Source of the DNA: Escherichia coli O127:H6 str. E2348/69
GTDB taxonomy: Bacteria; Pseudomonadota; Gammaproteobacteria; Enterobacterales; Enterobacteriaceae
Assembly: GCF_000026545.1 (NCBI RefSeq)
Contig: NC_011601.1
Strand: one strand, 5' to 3'
Length of the DNA stretch: 64,000 nucleotides
How positions within the stretch are numbered: position 1 is the stretch's first letter; each line of letters starts with the position of its first letter. The translations under genes were made by a program, and so were the position numbers. A model generated the notes under the pieces. That model was not told the DNA's origin and searched no databases. It saw only the letters and a program-made list of their open reading frames with translations. Shown one piece after another: positions 42,848 to 63,879 of the stretch.

Positions 42848-43726
42848 CTACAGCATATTCAGTACGTACTGGAATCGACAGGTAGAATCAATAGGTTGCC
42901 GCGAGGTGGTATCCACGCGAAGCACCATATCATGAAGCTCTTTGTCGGTAATGGGGTGACGATTTGGTGTTACCGTCACTTTGGCATTGTCACAGCCCGA
43001 TGAGGTGAAGGTGAGCATCTGCGACACCCAACGACAATAAGCACCACGATCGTCAGTATCACCAAATTTGCTGCCGTCACACAGTTTGCCGTCTTTCATC
43101 AGGTAGGTGGAGAGCGTTTTTTCAATTATCCCGCCGGTAGACTGGAGCGCTAACGTCTTATCACGCACAACCCGACTTTCATTCCAGGAGACATCATAAG
43201 GCCCTAACGGTATAGGTGGACAAGAAGAGTTACTGACTGTGCGTCCGGAATAGGTTCCCGGAGCAGGATCAATAAGATCAATGCTATCTGCATGTGTCGA
43301 TACCAGCCACGGGCAGCCATGAACGCTGGAGTCTTCCTTCCAGACTTCCATTCGTATTTCATAACAAGTCCACATCGTCCTTTGCGCACGGCTGTCATAC
43401 TCTGTAAGCCCCGGACAAGATGATTGTGATATCGCTGTCATCGATATGACTTTTAATGATGGTGCAGGGCCAGGTCCCGTCCAGCTTTTCAAAGGTATCC
43501 ATCCAGTGATTAAACCGGTGTTATTTGGTGTCTCATAAACACCGTGATTGACGCTATCGGGGGTAAGAACATCAAGATAATAAGTTATCTTCGTTGTGTA
43601 GCTTGCATACCCTATCGGTGTATACATTGTTGCAACAATGACATTCGCCTGAACTGCTGTACTGAAGAAAAGTGATATCAGCAGGCCCAAAATCCAGCGC
43701 ATTATTTTCATCTTAAATATACTCAA
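42848..43726 (-). CDS. yfcO: Fimbrial operon distal protein (DUF2544), probable tip adhesin
   Basis: 292-aa secreted ORF at the 3' end of the chaperone-usher operon; start uncertain. Confidence 0.75.
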   Translation of the reverse strand: MSIFKMKIMRWILGLLISLFFSTAVQANVIVATMYTPIGYASYTTKITYYLDVLTPDSVNHGVYETPNNTGLITGWIPLKSWTGPGPAPSLKVISMTAISQSSCPGLTEYDSRAQRTMWTCYEIRMEVWKEDSSVHGCPWLVSTHADSIDLIDPAPGTYSGRTVSNSSCPPIPLGPYDVSWNESRVVRDKTLALQSTGGIIEKTLSTYLMKDGKLCDGSKFGDTDDRGAYCRWVSQMLTFTSSGCDNAKVTVTPNRHPITDKELHDMVLRVDTTSRQPIDSTCRFQYVLNML

Positions 43727-54897: not shown

Positions 54898-54982
54898 AGA
54901 TGTACCTCAGACCCTACACTTCGCGCTCCTGTTACAGCACGTAACATAGTTTGTATAAAAATAAATCATTGAGGTTATGGTC

Positions 54983-56323
54983 ATGAGCCAGAAAACCCTG
55001 TTTACAAAGTCTGCTCTCGCAGTCGCAGTGGCACTTATCTCCACCCAGGCCTGGTCGGCAGGCTTTCAGTTAAACGAATTTTCTTCCTCTGGCCTGGGCC
55101 GGGCTTATTCAGGGGAAGGTGCAATTGCCGATGATGCAGGTAACGTTAGCCGTAACCCCGCATTGATTACCATGTTTGACCGCCCGACATTTTCTGCGGG
55201 TGCGGTTTATATTGATCCGGATGTAGATATTACCGGACATTCTGATTTAACCGGTCAGAGTGCAAATGCTAAAAATATCGCACCGACAGCATGGGTACCT
55301 AACCTGCACTTTGTTGCGCCTATTAACGATCAGTTTGGTTGGGGAGCGTCAATAACTTCCAACTATGGCCTGGCTACGGAATTTACCGACAACTACGCTG
55401 CTGGTATCTATGGCGGTAAAACCGATCTGCAAACAATCAACCTTAACCTTAGCGGGGCTTATCGCCTTAACAATAGCTGGAGTTTTGGTCTTGGTTTTGA
55501 TGCAGTTTATGCCAAGGCAAAAATTGAGCGTTACGCCGGTTCGCTGGGGCCATTGTTGTCTCAACAGTTGATTGCCAAGGGTGTACCCGCTTCATTAACT
55601 AATGGTATTAATACTCCGGACTCTCAAATTGCTCATCTGAAAGGTGACGAATGGGGCTTTGGCTGGAACGCGGGTATTCTTTATGAACTGGATAAAGATA
55701 ACCGTTGGGGGCTGACATATCGTTCAGAAGTTAAAATCGACTTCGATGGGGATTACAAAAGCTCCATTAACCCAAATCTGAACAATATTTTGGGTAACAT
55801 GGGCTTACCGTATGGCACGATGGGGGCAACCCAAAATGGATCCTTAACGCTGAACCTGCCTGAGATGTGGGAGATTTCTGGTTATAACCGTGTTGCGCCG
55901 CAGTGGGCAATTCACTACAGCATGGCCTATACCAGTTGGAGCCAGTTCCAGGAATTGAAAGCGAAAGGCGATAGTGGTCAGACTCTGTTCTATAAAGATG
56001 AAGGATTCCGGGACGCGTATCGTATCGCGTTGGGTACAACCTACTATTATGATAAAAACTGGACCTTCCGTACCGGTATCGCTTATGACGACAGCCCGGT
56101 TCCGGCAGATAAACGTTCTATTTCCATTCCTGACCAGGATCGTTTGTGGTTAAGTGCTGGGTTAACCTACGCATTTAATGAAGATGCATCCATTGACGTT
56201 GGCGCATCTTATATGCATGGTCAGAAAGTGAAATTCACCGAAGGTGAAGGAGCGGCAGCTTATTCCTTCGAGTCTGAAGGTAAAGCCTGGCTGTTCGGTA
56301 CTAACTTTAACTACGCGTTCTGA
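54983..56323 (+). CDS. fadL: Long-chain fatty acid outer-membrane transporter
   Basis: Signal peptide [25 protein letters not shown] and C-terminal beta-barrel ending in F. Confidence 0.96.
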
Positions 56324-56343
56324 TAACGCGTTAGCTTAATAAG

Positions 56344-56376
56344 AAAAAAGGTGAGTTTTGCGACTCACCTTTTTTG
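56344..56376. terminator. Bidirectional terminator between fadL and mlaA
   Basis: aaaaaaggtgagttttgcgactcaccttttttg hairpin with flanking A/T runs. Confidence 0.8.
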
Positions 56377-56384
56377 TTTGTTTC

Positions 56385-57140
56385 TTATTCAGAATCGATA
56401 TCTTTTAAATCATCCTGAATCGCTTGCGCGTTCGGATTTTCCTGCGGTTTGAGTTCACCGCCATTAGCGATGAAATCATGACGCTGGAAGTACGCTTCAC
56501 GCACCATAATATAAGGATCGGACGACTGACGCAGCAGACCGTCGGAATCCAACAACTGCGCACGAGTTTCTATCCCTTCAAGCGTCCATTTACCCACAGA
56601 CATCGGCCAGGTCAGCCAGGAAAGAACCGGGTAAAGACTATCCGCCATATCACCACCGTCATCACGCAGCGTGAAGCTACCGTAGAACGGTAACTGAACG
56701 TACGGCCCATAACCCACACCATAATGACCAAGCGTACTACCGAAGCGGTGAGGTTCAGTCCGTTGCAGTTTCGGGTTTGCCATCCCTGCAACATCAATAA
56801 AGCCGCCCATTCCCAAAATGGTATTCAGGAAAAAGCGGGTAAAGTGGACCATCCCCTGATAAGGGTCGCCCTGCAAGAAGTAGTTAACCATCACCGCAGG
56901 TTCTTCAAGGTTGCCGGTAAAGTTGCTCAAACCGTTACGCGCAGGTTGCGGAACATAATCACGCCAGGCGACAGCGACCGGTCGAACAATATACGGGTCT
57001 AATACATTGAAGTTGAAGTTGTACATAGTGCGGTTAAACCCTTCTAACGGGTCAGAACGCCCTTGCTGATCTGTACCGGAACTCGCACACCCCACCAGAA
57101 GCGTAGTTCCCAGAGCAAGCGCCGACAGGCGAAGCTTCAT
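56385..57140 (-). CDS. mlaA: Outer-membrane lipoprotein of the Mla phospholipid transport system
   Basis: 251-aa ORF with lipoprotein signal (LLVGCASS). Confidence 0.93.
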   Translation of the reverse strand: MKLRLSALALGTTLLVGCASSGTDQQGRSDPLEGFNRTMYNFNFNVLDPYIVRPVAVAWRDYVPQPARNGLSNFTGNLEEPAVMVNYFLQGDPYQGMVHFTRFFLNTILGMGGFIDVAGMANPKLQRTEPHRFGSTLGHYGVGYGPYVQLPFYGSFTLRDDGGDMADSLYPVLSWLTWPMSVGKWTLEGIETRAQLLDSDGLLRQSSDPYIMVREAYFQRHDFIANGGELKPQENPNAQAIQDDLKDIDSE

Positions 57141-57433: not shown

Positions 57434-58366
57434 ATGGACAACGACAAAATTGATCAACACAGCGACGAAATTGAAGTTGAGAGCGAAGAAAAAGAGCGCG
57501 GTAAAAAAATAGAAATAGATGAAGACCGACTCCCCTCCCGGGCGATGGCAATTCATGAGCATATCCGCCAGGATGGTGAAAAAGAGCTGGAACGCGACGC
57601 AATGGCGCTACTGTGGTCAGCCATTGCGGCGGGCCTGTCGATGGGCGCTTCGCTACTGGCAAAAGGGATATTTCATGTCGAACTGGAAGGCGTGCCGGGC
57701 AGCTTCTTGCTGGAGAATCTCGGTTATACCTTTGGTTTTATTATCGTCATAATGGCCCGCCAGCAATTATTTACCGAAAACACCGTAACTGCGGTACTAC
57801 CCGTCATGCAAAAACCGACAATGAGCAACGTCGGCTTACTTATGCGGTTATGGGGCATCGTGCTGCTGGGTAATATTCTCGGGACAGGTATTGCTGCGTG
57901 GGCATTTGAATATATGCCTATCTTCAATGAAGAAACTCGCGATGCATTTGTCAAAATCGGCATGGATGTGATGAAGAACACCCCCAGCGAGATGTTTGCC
58001 AACGCGATCATTTCCGGCTGGCTGATCGCCACTATGGTATGGATGTTTCCTGCAGCGGGTGCGGCAAAGATTGTGGTGATTATATTGATGACCTGGCTTA
58101 TTGCCCTGGGTGACACCACTCACATCGTTGTCGGTTCTGTTGAAATCCTCTATCTGGTGTTTAACGGTACGCTGCACTGGAGCGATTTCATCTGGCCCTT
58201 CGCACTACCTACTTTAGCGGGGAACATCTGCGGCGGCACCTTTATCTTCGCGTTAATGAGTCATGCACAGATCCGTAACGACATGAGCAACAAGCGCAAA
58301 GCAGAAGCACGCCAAAAAGCAGAACGTGCGGAAAACATTAAGAAAAATGATAAAAACCCGGCATAA
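57434..58366 (+). CDS. yfdC: Formate/nitrite transporter-family inner-membrane protein
   Basis: 310-aa polytopic ORF. Confidence 0.88.
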   Translation: MDNDKIDQHSDEIEVESEEKERGKKIEIDEDRLPSRAMAIHEHIRQDGEKELERDAMALLWSAIAAGLSMGASLLAKGIFHVELEGVPGSFLLENLGYTFGFIIVIMARQQLFTENTVTAVLPVMQKPTMSNVGLLMRLWGIVLLGNILGTGIAAWAFEYMPIFNEETRDAFVKIGMDVMKNTPSEMFANAIISGWLIATMVWMFPAAGAAKIVVIILMTWLIALGDTTHIVVGSVEILYLVFNGTLHWSDFIWPFALPTLAGNICGGTFIFALMSHAQIRNDMSNKRKAEARQKAERAENIKKNDKNPA

Positions 58367-58441: not shown

Positions 58442-58516
58442 GTCCTCTTAGTTAAATGGATATAACGAGCCCCTCCTAAGGGCTAATTGCAGGTTCGATT
58501 CCTGCAGGGGACACCA
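58442..58516 (+). tRNA. argW: tRNA-Arg (anticodon CCU)
   Basis: gtcctcttagttaaatggatataacgagcccctCCTaagggctaattgcaggttcgattcctgcaggggacacca: cloverleaf with CCU anticodon loop, T-arm GGTTCGATTCC, no encoded CCA. Confidence 0.9.
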
Positions 58517-58677: not shown

Positions 58678-59835
58678 ATGCTCACCGTTAAGCAGATTGA
58701 AGCAGCAAAGCCGAAAGAAAAACCATACCGCCTACTCGATGGTAATGGCCTGTACCTTTATGTCCCTGTATCAGGGAAAAAGGTATGGCAGCTTCGCTAC
58801 AAGATTGACGGTAAGGAGAAAATCCTGACTGTCGGAAAATATCCGCTTATGACTTTGCAGGAAGCAAGGGATAAGGCATGGACTGCGAGGAAAGACATCT
58901 CGGTTGGCATCGATCCGGTAAAGGCGAAAAAGGCTTCGTCTAACAACAATTCATTTAGTGCGATTTACAAGGAATGGTACGAGCACAAGAAGCAAGTCTG
59001 GTCAGTAGGCTATGCAACTGAACTTGCCAAAATGTTTGATGACGACATTTTACCCATCATCGGCGGTCTTGAGATTCAGGATATTGAGCCGATGCAACTG
59101 CTGGAAGTAATCCGCAGATTTGAAGATCGCGGTGCAATGGAGCGAGCCAACAAAGCCCGCAGAAGATGCGGCGAGGTTTTTCGTTACGCTATTGTCACCG
59201 GAAGGGCTAAATATAACCCGGCACCTGACCTTGCAGACGCCATGAAAGGATACCGCAAGAAGAACTTCCCGTTCCTTCCAGCAGACCAGATGCCTGCATT
59301 CAACAAAGCACTGGCAACATTTTCAGGAAGTATCGTATCGCTCATTGCGACAAAAGTTTTACGTTATACAGCCCTAAGAACGAAAGAGCTTCGTTCCATG
59401 CTATGGAAGAACGTCGATTTTGAAAACAGGATTATCACCATCGACGCCAGTGTGATGAAGGGACGCAAAATTCATGTGGTCCCGATGTCAGACCAGGTGG
59501 TTGAACTTCTCACTACGCTAAGCTCAATCACCAAACCAGTCTCAGAGTTTGTTTTTGCCGGGCGCAACGATAAGAAGAAGCCAATCTGCGAGAACGCGGT
59601 ATTGCTTGTGATCAAACAAATCGGCTATGAAGGTCTGGAAAGCGGTCACGGATTCAGGCATGAATTCAGCACGATTATGAACGAGCACGAATGGCCTGCT
59701 GACGCTATTGAAGTGCAACTGGCACATGCCAACGGCGGATCTGTGCGTGGGATTTACAACCATGCTCAGTATCTCGATAAACGCAGAGAAATGATGCAGT
59801 GGTGGGCGGACTGGCTTGATGAAAAGGTAGGGTGA
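58678..59835 (+). mobile_element. intS: P4-family tyrosine integrase (phage integrase)
   Basis: N-terminal arm-binding domain and C-terminal catalytic domain (R...HGFRH...Y), directly downstream of tRNA-Arg; start set at MLTVKQIEAA (ORF track begins 36 nt upstream). Confidence 0.9.
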
Positions 59836-60065: not shown

Positions 60066-60281
60066 TTATTTCGTTTGAATGCCAGTAACAGGAAATCGTT
60101 TATATAGGGTTGATAGCCCAACGTTATAGATACGTGCAACATAACGCCGCGATTTCCCTGCCGCTATGAGCGCTCCCATCTGTTGCCACTGCTCGTCGCT
60201 AAACTTCGGTCTACGCCCACCAATCCGGCCTTTGGATCTGGCAATAGCCAAACCAGCTAAAGTTCCGGGATGACAGGCCAG
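60066..60281 (-). pseudogene. Remnant of a Gin/Pin/Hin-family serine DNA invertase: C-terminal HTH domain only
   Basis: ...GRIGGRRPKFSDEQWQQMGALIAAGKSRRYVARIYNVGLSTLYKRF matches the invertase C-terminus; frame opens only from 60281 and the ORF-track Met is a TTG; no catalytic N-terminal domain. Confidence 0.75.
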
Positions 60282-60625
60282 TTAACATGCTCAGGGTCGG
60301 TTGTTACATCAACAGCCTTAACCTGATTCTTATATAAAAGCCACGCCGAAAGTTTAGCTCTGTTGGCATCGCTGATTTCACCCAGCATCAGCTCTGTGCG
60401 CCAGTCGAGCATAATTGCATCAGCGGCGGACAGTAATCGCTGTCGCTCATTTTCAGCAGCCTGGATGAGTTGTTCATGAGTCGGTGGGGGATTAATAATT
60501 TCCATAGCCTCACTTCTGGTGATTGGCACAAGCCCTTCTTTGATAAAAGCATCCTGTGTGCCATACGCATCGTAGGCATATACGACGTTATTTTCATCTT
60601 TGTAATACTTCATCATTGTTATCAT
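60257..60625 (-). CDS. Phage tail-fibre assembly (chaperone) protein, short form
   Basis: 122-aa ORF with the conserved Tfa C-terminal motif (...[20 protein letters not shown]); directly downstream of the tail-fibre gene. Confidence 0.75.
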
Positions 60626-61668
60626 TTTTTATCCACCTCTGCCCAGGTAACATCTGACACAGTTCCTGAAAACTGCCGCACGACATAGGTCGCACCGGCA
60701 GGAACCATGAATGCGATAGTTGCTCTGTGCCCTGCAAGATTTGTTGTCTGATTGCCGCGAAAATTAGCCAAATTACCATCCATATTAACGTCGGCGCTCA
60801 GAAATGAACTACCGTCAGACATCACCGCATTGACGCTTACAAATATGGCGAAAGACTGGCTGTTGGTGTATACGACACCGAGATTTCTAGATTTCATTCC
60901 GCATTGACCAAACAACCCTTTCATATCTGAGTAGTTTTGTGATGCAGCAAGTGATGATGCGGCAACACCAGATTCTGTTGATGTTCTGGAATCAGATACG
61001 CGGATAATTCCCTTGTTTGTAGTGGTTGCATCATTAGTCTTGCCTTGCAGAGCTACAATATCCGCATAATTCATCGCTGCCGCTTTTGCTGTTGCAGCAA
61101 GCGTTTCAGATTCGGATACCCTTGATGATGTAAGTTGAACAATTCCTTTCTGTGTCGTAGTTGAATCCTGAGTTTTGTTTTGCAAAGATTTTATGTCCGT
61201 ATAGTTTTGCGCGACAGCATTAGCTGTGGCTGCAATATCCTCTGCACCCGATACCCGCGATGACGTTAACCGGACTAAACCCACCTGTGTTGTTGATGCG
61301 TTTTTAATACCAAGGTTTTCGAGAGCCGTTTGCACAGTGCCATCCGATTTGATATCGCCAAACGGATTCTTGCGGCTCAGGTATTCAACAGCAAACCCCG
61401 ATCCCAGCAATTCAACAAAACCGGGCAGATCACCATTATCAAGCACATCCCGTTGCGTTTTATCACTTACAAACTGGGCCAGAGCTGCAGCAATAAAGCT
61501 GGCCTGCCGAATAACCTTATTGACTTGCGCACTGGATGCTTTCCCTGCTGTAAATCCGGATATAAGCGCAGGCAACGCTTCCCATTCCTCCTGCGACATA
61601 ACATTGGCATTTCGATCAGTTGCAAACGCTTTAAAGTCATTTTTCGCCATCAGAGTAATACTCCCCAT
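60622..61668 (-). CDS. Phage side tail-fibre protein with three tandem fibre repeats
   Basis: 348-aa ORF; three ~43-aa repeats ([16 protein letters not shown]...[15 protein letters not shown]) characteristic of tail-fibre proteins. Confidence 0.85.
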
Positions 61669-62330
61669 GCCCCTACATCAAAACCACTGATGAATTCGTT
61701 ATCCATATCAAAACCAAAAAATTTAGAGCCTTCCGATGGAGTTTCCACCGAAGGTGTTTCAATGCCCCCCGCCCATACCCCGGCGGCTTTTACTGTTAGA
61801 TACCCCTGTTTAATTGCCGCAATTAACTCACGCGATACATCTGAAATATCAGTATCAGGAAAGACCCAGACCGATATCGTCATGTCCTGGTTATCGACTA
61901 TCTGCATTCGCAGCCCGGATCCTGCTGTTGCCGCGTCAAGAATTGCCGGAAGCGAATCATTCCGTCCGTCCCAGTTATTAATCGCAATCTTCGCTTTAAG
62001 AATGACACGATAAGTTTCATCGCTGAGATACATGTATCCTGAATCAGGATCGTATGGTCCCTGCCATACCCCCTGATCATATCCAAGCCCGTCGGTATCC
62101 CAGCTGAAATAGACACCTGAGATAGGCTGGCTGACAACACGGCTACGTCCGATCCACAATCCAAGAATGTCAAGTTGCACACCAACCGCAGAGTCAATAT
62201 CAAATGCAGTAATCAGCCCTCTGGTGGCAGCCGCAACATCAATAAGTGGCCGGGTCATCAGATCAACATGCGCAAGAAATTTAGGTTTGGTAGCGTGGTA
62301 GTTCGTGATTAGTTCGGTGTATTTGCTCAT
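61650..62330 (-). CDS. Phage tail/baseplate protein (Mu gp48 / DUF2313-like)
   Basis: 226-aa ORF between the baseplate J-like gene and the tail fibre, as in Mu-like tail modules. Confidence 0.7.
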
Positions 62331-63526
62331 GACTCCACCGTTATAACGATATTTTCCGGGGTACAGGACGTAGATTCGTTGTATCTGATATCAATGTTTG
62401 ATGACGACAAAGCCCCCGGGGATTTCCCAATCGTCAGTTCCTGAATATCGTAATAGCGTGCATTCCCGCCACTCACCACGCCAAGATTCGCCGGTGAGTA
62501 AATGCGACTTAAAAGGACCGAATCACCAATCATCAGACTATTGATATAGTCGGAAATAGCCTGCTGGATCTGCTGCCCTATCTGTGAGGTATAACCCGTA
62601 AAAACTTTTAATTTAATCCGGGCGTAAACAGGCACATCACTGGAACGCGAGAATTTGATTACATGGGGATTGCCGTATTTATCCGGAACCGTAACGGATG
62701 TTGTACCGTGAGTGGCTGTCCCCTGGCCTTTATTTCCTCTGATAGCCTGAGCAATATCCGTCACATCACCGCCATCCACAATTACAGCAACAGAGTGTGG
62801 CGGTAACCCGTTACCGTCCTCCGAACCAGTATCGTTTTCATAGAGTTTGTGGCGGGTTACACCGGTAACATTAGAAACAGCACCATCCAGTGCTTCAAAT
62901 GGGGTTATTGATGGCAACGCAACACTTTGCGACTGGCGGATACGTAACTCCGCATCAGTTTCTGCTGGAGTGCCTACAGTAGCTGCAGCAGGATTGGTTA
63001 CCGAAACCCAGCCACGGGTTGGCGTATTAATTTCAGTGATAGTTCCAGCCAGCGCCGCCACTGCACCACTGACAGAACATTTTGCGGTCACCATCACTGT
63101 ACCATCCACGCCGACCACCACTGAAGCAGGCAAACGCCATATCACATTATTACTGTCTTTCACGCTGCCATTAATGATGGTTGTTCCGGCAGTTCCTGTA
63201 AGAAGCAAATCAACCGTAGAATTCGTCGCGCCTTTACGTGAAATACCATTTATTTTCACGTTACTGGTCAGTGCAGCCCCATAGCCGGTTGCCGGTGAAA
63301 AACAGTTGTAGACAGTTATCGCCATATTATTGGCATCATGAATCGCCAGCGCCATCAGAGCCACCATCTGGCCGTCTTTGCTGTCCGGTTCGAGGTAGGC
63401 ATCACTGCCATAAATCTGCTGAAAATAGCTAATCAGGGTGCTGAGTATCGTCTGATAATCAGGCGCACTGATCCCCTCCGCGGTTACCTTTGCAGATAAA
63501 CCGAGAGAATCAAGGTTCAGAGCCAT
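62327..63526 (-). CDS. Baseplate J-like protein (Mu gp47-like)
   Basis: 399-aa ORF; size, position and overlapping stop/start junctions typical of baseplate wedge gene J. Confidence 0.7.
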   Translation of the reverse strand: MALNLDSLGLSAKVTAEGISAPDYQTILSTLISYFQQIYGSDAYLEPDSKDGQMVALMALAIHDANNMAITVYNCFSPATGYGAALTSNVKINGISRKGATNSTVDLLLTGTAGTTIINGSVKDSNNVIWRLPASVVVGVDGTVMVTAKCSVSGAVAALAGTITEINTPTRGWVSVTNPAAATVGTPAETDAELRIRQSQSVALPSITPFEALDGAVSNVTGVTRHKLYENDTGSEDGNGLPPHSVAVIVDGGDVTDIAQAIRGNKGQGTATHGTTSVTVPDKYGNPHVIKFSRSSDVPVYARIKLKVFTGYTSQIGQQIQQAISDYINSLMIGDSVLLSRIYSPANLGVVSGGNARYYDIQELTIGKSPGALSSSNIDIRYNESTSCTPENIVITVES

Positions 63527-63879
63527 TACGCCTCCGATGTAACAGTCGTTATTCCATAGAGAGTGTCGATTTCAGCGGAAAACATGACACGTCGGGTCGT
63601 GGTATCCACCGTCGTATTGAAAGAGAGGATTGATTTAACGCCCTGCGTTTCCAGAATGCGTTTTCTGATCGCTAGGTTGTAAGTTTCCGGTTTTTGCCTG
63701 CCCAGCACAGACTGGATCCACGGAGTCCCTTCGGTAGTGTCGAGAAACCATTGCCCATACCACAATTCGAATCGCGTTTTCACAGCCTGCGCCACGGCCT
63801 CAGGCGAGTTAATCAGCCAGGTGTCATCACCGCTGCCAAAGGTGTAATCGCCATCGGCGTCTTCACGTCTGTATCGCAT
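63526..63879 (-). CDS. Phage baseplate protein (Mu gp46 / GPW-like)
   Basis: 117-aa ORF immediately upstream of the J-like gene. Confidence 0.65.
   Translation of the reverse strand: MRYRREDADGDYTFGSGDDTWLINSPEAVAQAVKTRFELWYGQWFLDTTEGTPWIQSVLGRQKPETYNLAIRKRILETQGVKSILSFNTTVDTTTRRVMFSAEIDTLYGITTVTSEA

Follow-up and report, generated by a model that had tools for sequence, protein, structure and literature searches.

The window analysed here is a 64,000-nucleotide stretch of contig NC_011601.1 from Escherichia coli O127:H6 str. E2348/69 (assembly GCF_000026545.1), in which RefSeq annotation together with family models gives the gene order fadJ, fadI and yfcZ (all minus strand), fadL (plus), mlaA (minus), yfdC (plus), argW (plus) and intS (plus), followed by minus-strand phage genes. 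A 2.9-kb segment containing the fadL-mlaA junction matches the record NZ_CP059840.2 of E2348/69, the EPEC prototype, at 100% identity. The fadL gene, encoding the long-chain fatty acid outer-membrane channel, spans 54983-56323 on the plus strand in the RefSeq annotation. Its product belongs to the FadL family, scoring 832 bits against NCBIfam model NF007988 (cut-off 585), and matches the solved structure PDB 1T16 over residues 26-446 with an E value of 7e-211. An in-frame ATG lies just upstream at 54977, and this is the start coordinate used in an earlier interpretation of the same DNA made without database searches (the sequence-only reading). The convergent mlaA (vacJ) gene, for a phospholipid-binding lipoprotein, occupies 56385-57140 on the minus strand (NF011672, 505 bits; RefSeq). 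The two genes are contiguous, as that reading had stated: their stops fall at 56323 and 56385, and the 61-bp spacer between them (56324-56384), uninterrupted when aligned with K-12 and with outgroup spacers, holds zero ORFs, which makes this a yfdF-negative locus. On the other side of fadL, the fadI-yfcZ spacer (window about 54100-54300) is 225 bp here versus 180 bp in K-12, a 45-bp indel.

The sole hairpin in the fadL-mlaA spacer, at 56344-56375, consists of AAAAAAGGTGAG-TTTTGCGA-CTCACCTTTTTT and forms 14 pairs. RNA folding on the two strands gave energies of -20.5 and -19.0 kcal/mol with z-scores of -4.2 and -5.0, zero shuffles were as stable, and a terminator scan flagged the same element. 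An A-tract upstream and a T-tract downstream would supply a U-run at the transcript end on each strand, as in a bidirectional intrinsic terminator. Judging from the fold, this single hairpin most likely terminates the fadL and mlaA transcripts both; the bidirectional terminator proposed for the 61-bp gap is a fair reading.

Beyond mlaA lie yfdC (57434-58366, plus strand), a formate/nitrite transporter family gene according to family models and RefSeq, and argW (58442-58516, plus strand), a tRNA-Arg(CCT) gene called by ARAGORN. The last 15 nt of argW (58502-58516, plus strand), CTGCAGGGGACACCA, form the core of attL, and the same 15-mer recurs beyond torI at the far prophage end (L091 3256-3270). 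This duplication identifies integration into the argW 3' end with an attR copy; K-12 has the pair as well, its attR copy bearing the annotation pawZ. With the 15-nt core at both ends, the E2348/69 prophage measures about 43.3 kb. Its first gene, intS (58678-59835, plus strand; family models and RefSeq), encodes a tyrosine integrase with 99.7% amino-acid identity to K-12 IntS, and the prophage extends past the window end. The excision factor TorI, 100% identical between the two strains, is encoded at the end opposite to this attL-borne IntS orthologue, an arrangement that marks a prophage of the KplE1/CPS-53 type. In both strains a 31-nt copy of the argW 3' end is split into halves around torI, with the T-arm 16-mer TTGCAGGTTCGATTCC just upstream and the acceptor-end 15-mer, which is the att core, just downstream (L091 3256-3270 and 3564-3579 in E2348/69, outside the window; L093 16276-16291 and 16585-16599 in K-12). 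The first 16-mer match, considered as attR, was rejected because it lies on the wrong side of torI, and the core was assigned to the adjacent 15-mer beyond torI. Past attR (L091 1-2816, outside the window), E2348/69 carries the sucrose-utilisation genes cscA, a kinase gene and an MFS transporter gene, and K-12 carries dsdC and dsdX at that position; the whole argW-dsd region is variable between the two strains.

The genes after intS all lie on the minus strand. The first feature, at 60066-60263, is the C-terminal HTH_7 remnant of a Pin/Gin-type serine DNA invertase (PF02796, PHROG 125; an incomplete HTH protein in RefSeq), which occupies the slot of gtrABS in K-12. It is followed by a tail fibre assembly protein gene (60257-60625; PF02413, PHROG 188), a tail fibre gene whose tail-fibre-homologous part is incomplete according to RefSeq (60622-61668; PHROG 11303, PF03406), and baseplate genes for a DUF2612 protein, a baseplate J protein and a gp25-like sheath initiator (61650-63879; RefSeq, Pfam and PHROG), which are 97.7% identical at the nucleotide level to Escherichia phage vB_EcoM-606R2. 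The content of the prophage as a whole combines lambdoid immunity, replication, nin and lysis genes with a contractile-tail morphogenesis set.

In K-12 MG1655 (NC_000913.3), the corresponding order is fadL-yfdF-mlaA-yfdC-argW followed by CPS-53 (intS-yfdG-yfdH-yfdI ... torI), where yfdG, yfdH and yfdI are gtrA, gtrB and gtrS; a K-12 derivative has this layout too. The K-12 layout cited in the sequence-only reading, with yfdF between fadL and mlaA and gtr genes after the integrase, is thus accurate, and K-12 does not show the adjacency seen here. Pairwise alignment reduces the difference at the junction to one 1544-bp block in K-12, positioned at about 56336/56337 of the window and running from ~12 bp past the fadL stop codon up to the shared hairpin. 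The GC content of this block is 33-36%, compared with about 50% in the flanks. A search around the K-12 block for terminal inverted repeats and target-site duplications returned chance-level short repeats only, and YfdF gave zero family matches in Pfam and NCBIfam. Across other E. coli genomes, yfdF (also named icaT) exists in length variants of 343-423 amino acids that reflect expansion of an acidic internal repeat and C-terminal truncation, and PGAP labels these variants as hypothetical protein and not as YfdF. The hypothetical protein annotated between fadL and mlaA in some genomes, considered as a third insert type, was accordingly rejected as a longer yfdF allele with internal repeat expansion.

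The same alignment reveals a second difference within fadL itself, since identity to K-12 is 97-100% on both sides and 65-85% across 55216-56265 (plus strand). This divergent core represents a second allele class with 70.6% nucleotide identity to K-12, and its amino-acid differences fall mostly in predicted extracellular loops. At its two ends (the first 233 nt and the last 55 nt) the gene is 98-99% identical to K-12, and the two proteins are 77% identical overall. Between the allele classes the core shows pS of 0.70, which amounts to synonymous saturation, and dN of 0.20; the first 233 nt, compared between E2348/69 and K-12, give pS of 0.068 and dN of 0. Set against Salmonella, the K-12 core has a pS of 0.63 and a dN of 0.056. 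The K-12-type protein follows the species tree: it shares 95-96% identity with its counterparts in E. albertii and E. whittamii and 91% with that of Salmonella. The E2348-type protein is 76-78% identical to those of E. albertii, E. whittamii and Salmonella, and its nearest relatives outside Escherichia are found in Leclercia sp. 29361, Enterobacter soli and E. wuhouensis (84-86% protein identity). In a structure model of moderate confidence (pLDDT 72), 51% of the positions within predicted extracellular loops differ, as against 15% of those within strands, and the loop assignment leans both on this model and on the known FadL topology. Of 5426 genomes, 1213 (22%) carry the E2348-type core, in sub-groups at about 99%, 96%, 92-94% and 85% identity. 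Another divergent-allele block beside conserved core genes is the yfcO-yfcV chaperone-usher fimbrial operon (window about 42848-49296), with ~73% nucleotide identity to K-12 next to sixA at 98-99%.

We hypothesize that the 1.05-kb fadL core did not diverge within Escherichia. It would be either a cassette acquired from a different genus of enterobacteria or a polymorphism that predates the split of Escherichia and Salmonella, and it would be swapped by recombination in the conserved gene ends (233 nt at the 5' side, 55 nt at the 3' side) beside the yfdF insertion point; we regard this proposal as moderately probable. If it is correct, the second type of FadL surface loops would gain an identified source, and different sensitivity to FadL-dependent phages would be predicted in those E. 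coli (22%) with an E2348-type core. A literature search of phage-receptor papers yielded nothing relevant to FadL allele diversity.

Which state of the fadL-mlaA junction is ancestral? One genome per species was scanned for FadL relatives and the downstream genes were read, and this outgroup survey returned 80 Enterobacteriaceae loci. In most of them a convergent mlaA lies 51-100 bp past fadL, and the species with direct fadL-mlaA adjacency include E. albertii, E. whittamii, two Salmonella subspecies, Citrobacter, Enterobacter, Kluyvera, Leclercia, Kosakonia and Raoultella. A YfdF homologue downstream of fadL was found in 0 of the 80 other species surveyed. In an alignment the E2348/69 spacer is colinear, down to single bases, with the spacers of E. 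whittamii, E. albertii and other Escherichia species, with no insert remnant, and the hairpin stem is kept out to Salmonella and Citrobacter. The adjacency in outgroups and the base-level colinearity of the spacer indicate that the arrangement in the window is ancestral and the K-12 insertion derived. From these sequence comparisons we infer that the empty fadL-mlaA site is the ancestral enterobacterial state and that the yfdF block is a derived AT-rich insertion.

A population survey of 5426 complete E. coli genomes found the contiguous empty junction in 1125, by means of a 301-bp junction probe, and yfdF in 4295 (79%), and these two states together account for all but six genomes. The window therefore carries the minority state among E. 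coli. The sequence-only reading, which had described yfdF as an extra gene of K-12, was right about its presence there but understated its distribution. In a spread sample classed by flank, mlaA-yfdC was at least 98.8% identical to E2348/69 in all 13 empty-site genomes and at most 98.7% identical in all 46 yfdF-positive genomes; B2-like in this sample refers to the class defined by flank (mlaA-yfdC) identity to E2348/69. Because the flank haplotype tracks the site state (13/13 versus 0/46), the empty site appears to be a trait of the B2-like lineage and not of E2348/69 alone, and the genomes with an empty site include ST131 strains. The two fadL allele classes each occur both with and without yfdF, which gives all four combinations and indicates that the locus recombines and that the site state is not strictly vertical.

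At argW the comparison with K-12 takes a different form. Searches with K-12 YfdF, GtrA, GtrB and GtrS by tblastn found zero homologues in the 64-kb window and the 47-kb prophage locus, and the annotation of the prophage likewise holds no gtrA, gtrB or type-specific gtr gene by the integrase or att site, so the element is not of the serotype-converting kind and the claim that no glucosyl-transferase genes follow the integrase holds. The accompanying statement that tail genes follow instead is correct for the tail-fibre and baseplate genes, but the first feature is the invertase remnant. The framing of the gtr difference as an insertion that was never acquired does not stand, because argW is occupied in both strains by a prophage with the same IntS/TorI module, each a different phage. 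The K-12-type adjacency of intS and gtrA occurs in only 533 of 5426 genomes, intS-like sequence is far commoner, and the exact E2348/69 junction after intS is present in 6 of the 5426. Thus the lack of gtr genes after intS is normal and K-12 is unusual; most IntS prophages are without gtr, and the slot that separates the integrase from the tail-fibre module takes the gtr cluster as optional cargo.

For yfdF, the choice left between never acquired and lost can be narrowed, because an empty site that is ancestral and tracks the B2-like flank fits the former much better. A secondary loss would mean that yfdF/icaT was already present in the ancestor of all E. coli and that the B2-like lineage lost it, through either a precise deletion or homologous replacement with DNA of a donor that has an empty site, for example another Escherichia species. 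The locus offers some scope for such an event, in that fadL allele class and yfdF state are uncoupled in a recombining region, the neighbouring fadL core of E2348/69 is itself imported or very old, and Escherichia species with an empty site and a 96%-identical fadL core (loci L007 and L009) are possible donors. The strain IAI39 also bears on this point; later phylogroup schemes, we assume, place it near B2. If so, the report of icaT in IAI39 (PMC9241512) counts toward loss, and a single gain after the B2 split would need an extra recombination transfer. However, loss would require a scarless return to an ancestral spacer that is colinear with outgroups, yfdF is absent from all 80 other species sampled, and the empty site matches the flank haplotype perfectly in the sample. 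The idea that import of fadL brought the empty site into B2 was rejected, since W224N, with a B2 flank and a K-12-type fadL, has an empty site too, and since the 3' end of fadL and the spacer in E2348/69 are E. coli-like (98% identical to K-12). Loss of yfdF in B2 is for these reasons very unlikely.

An analogous argument can be made at the prophage, namely that E2348/69 once held gtrABS between intS and the tail-fibre module and lost them in the deletion that truncated the invertase. A deletion at exactly this slot is indeed evident: at the matching end of phage vB_EcoM-606R2 the invertase is intact and an invertible fibre segment is present, and E2348/69 is without the catalytic N-terminal part of the invertase and without that segment, which points to a deletion in the int-proximal slot of E2348/69. 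The IntS/TorI module is also the same as in the gtr-bearing CPS-53. Yet in vB_EcoM-606R2, whose tail module is the closest one sequenced, that end carries an invertase but no gtr, intS is followed by gtrA in few genomes relative to the frequency of intS-like sequence, and no gtr fragment is left in the window or the prophage locus. We therefore consider a former gtrABS cargo in this prophage unlikely.

The preferred explanation, to which we assign a probability of roughly 0.88, joins an ancestral fadL-mlaA junction that never received yfdF/icaT in the B2-like lineage with a different IntS/TorI prophage at argW that is without gtr. In E2348/69, a phylogroup B2 strain, fadL and mlaA converge on one shared hairpin in the ancestral arrangement. 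The 1.54-kb AT-rich yfdF/icaT insertion of K-12 and about four fifths of E. coli would be derived, and the B2-like lineage would never have received it. In both strains a prophage would have entered the final 15 nt of argW by means of one and the same IntS/TorI module, leaving K-12 with the 10-kb CPS-53/KplE1 remnant and its gtrABS cargo, and E2348/69 with a ~43-kb lambdoid contractile-tail prophage whose corresponding slot holds only the end of a truncated tail-fibre DNA invertase. The junction and prophage facts are real, ordinary and already published.

These observations show that at neither site does K-12 represent the default, as it carries a derived, silenced, type III secretion-linked icaT at fadL/mlaA and a minority gtr cargo at argW. 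Gene-order differences from K-12 should consequently be polarised with outgroups before they are called gains or losses. K-12 FadL also serves as a model phage receptor, and about a fifth of E. coli (ST131, ATCC 25922 and E2348/69 among them) carry a FadL that is only 77% identical, with differences mainly in the surface loops.

Comparison with known systems begins with icaT, the name under which yfdF has been studied. The gene has a functional MxiE box, is silenced by H-NS, and encodes a product secreted by the Shigella type III apparatus (PMC9241512; PMC9769918). It occurs in phylogroups A, B1, D and E and not in B2 (PMC9241512), and E2348/69 is named as icaT-negative (Silue and Campbell-Valois 2022, PMC9241512). 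Since yfdF is icaT, its absence from B2, E2348/69 included, has been in print since 2022, along with the conclusion that icaT was inserted beside fadL after B2 branched off (PMC9241512; the same conclusion in Hall et al. 2022, PMC9769918). The window presents the icaT-negative state of the same chromosomal site and leads to the same inference of insertion after B2. What is added beyond these papers is the count of 1125 empty and 4295 filled sites among 5426 genomes, the 80-species outgroup survey and the base-level spacer colinearity, none of it different in kind; the outgroup and population data back the published conclusion with numbers and do not constitute a new idea.

The fadL dimorphism has been described as well. 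FadL is a mosaic outer-membrane protein in which each of five loop regions comes in two major types whose distribution is at odds with lineage (10.1101/2024.10.30.621157; PMC12175518), and the source of the variable regions was left open (10.1101/2024.10.30.621157). The window carries the non-K-12 major type and resembles that description in both its loop differences and its lineage incongruence. It goes further in that the whole 1.05-kb core, and not the loops alone, is saturated at synonymous sites, and in that it groups with fadL of Leclercia and Enterobacter; this grouping with other genera and the core-wide saturation are the only additions.

The argW prophage is most closely comparable to CPS-53/KplE1 of K-12, with which it shares integration into the argW 3' end, the same 15-nt core, near-identical IntS and TorI, and an integrase beside the tail-fibre end. 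CPS-53/KplE1 is a 10-kb remnant with gtrABS between the integrase and the tail-fibre remnants, whereas the E2348/69 element is about 43 kb long and combines lambdoid genes for regulation and replication with a contractile-tail morphogenesis set, and in its slot a truncated Pin/Gin-type invertase takes the place of gtrABS.
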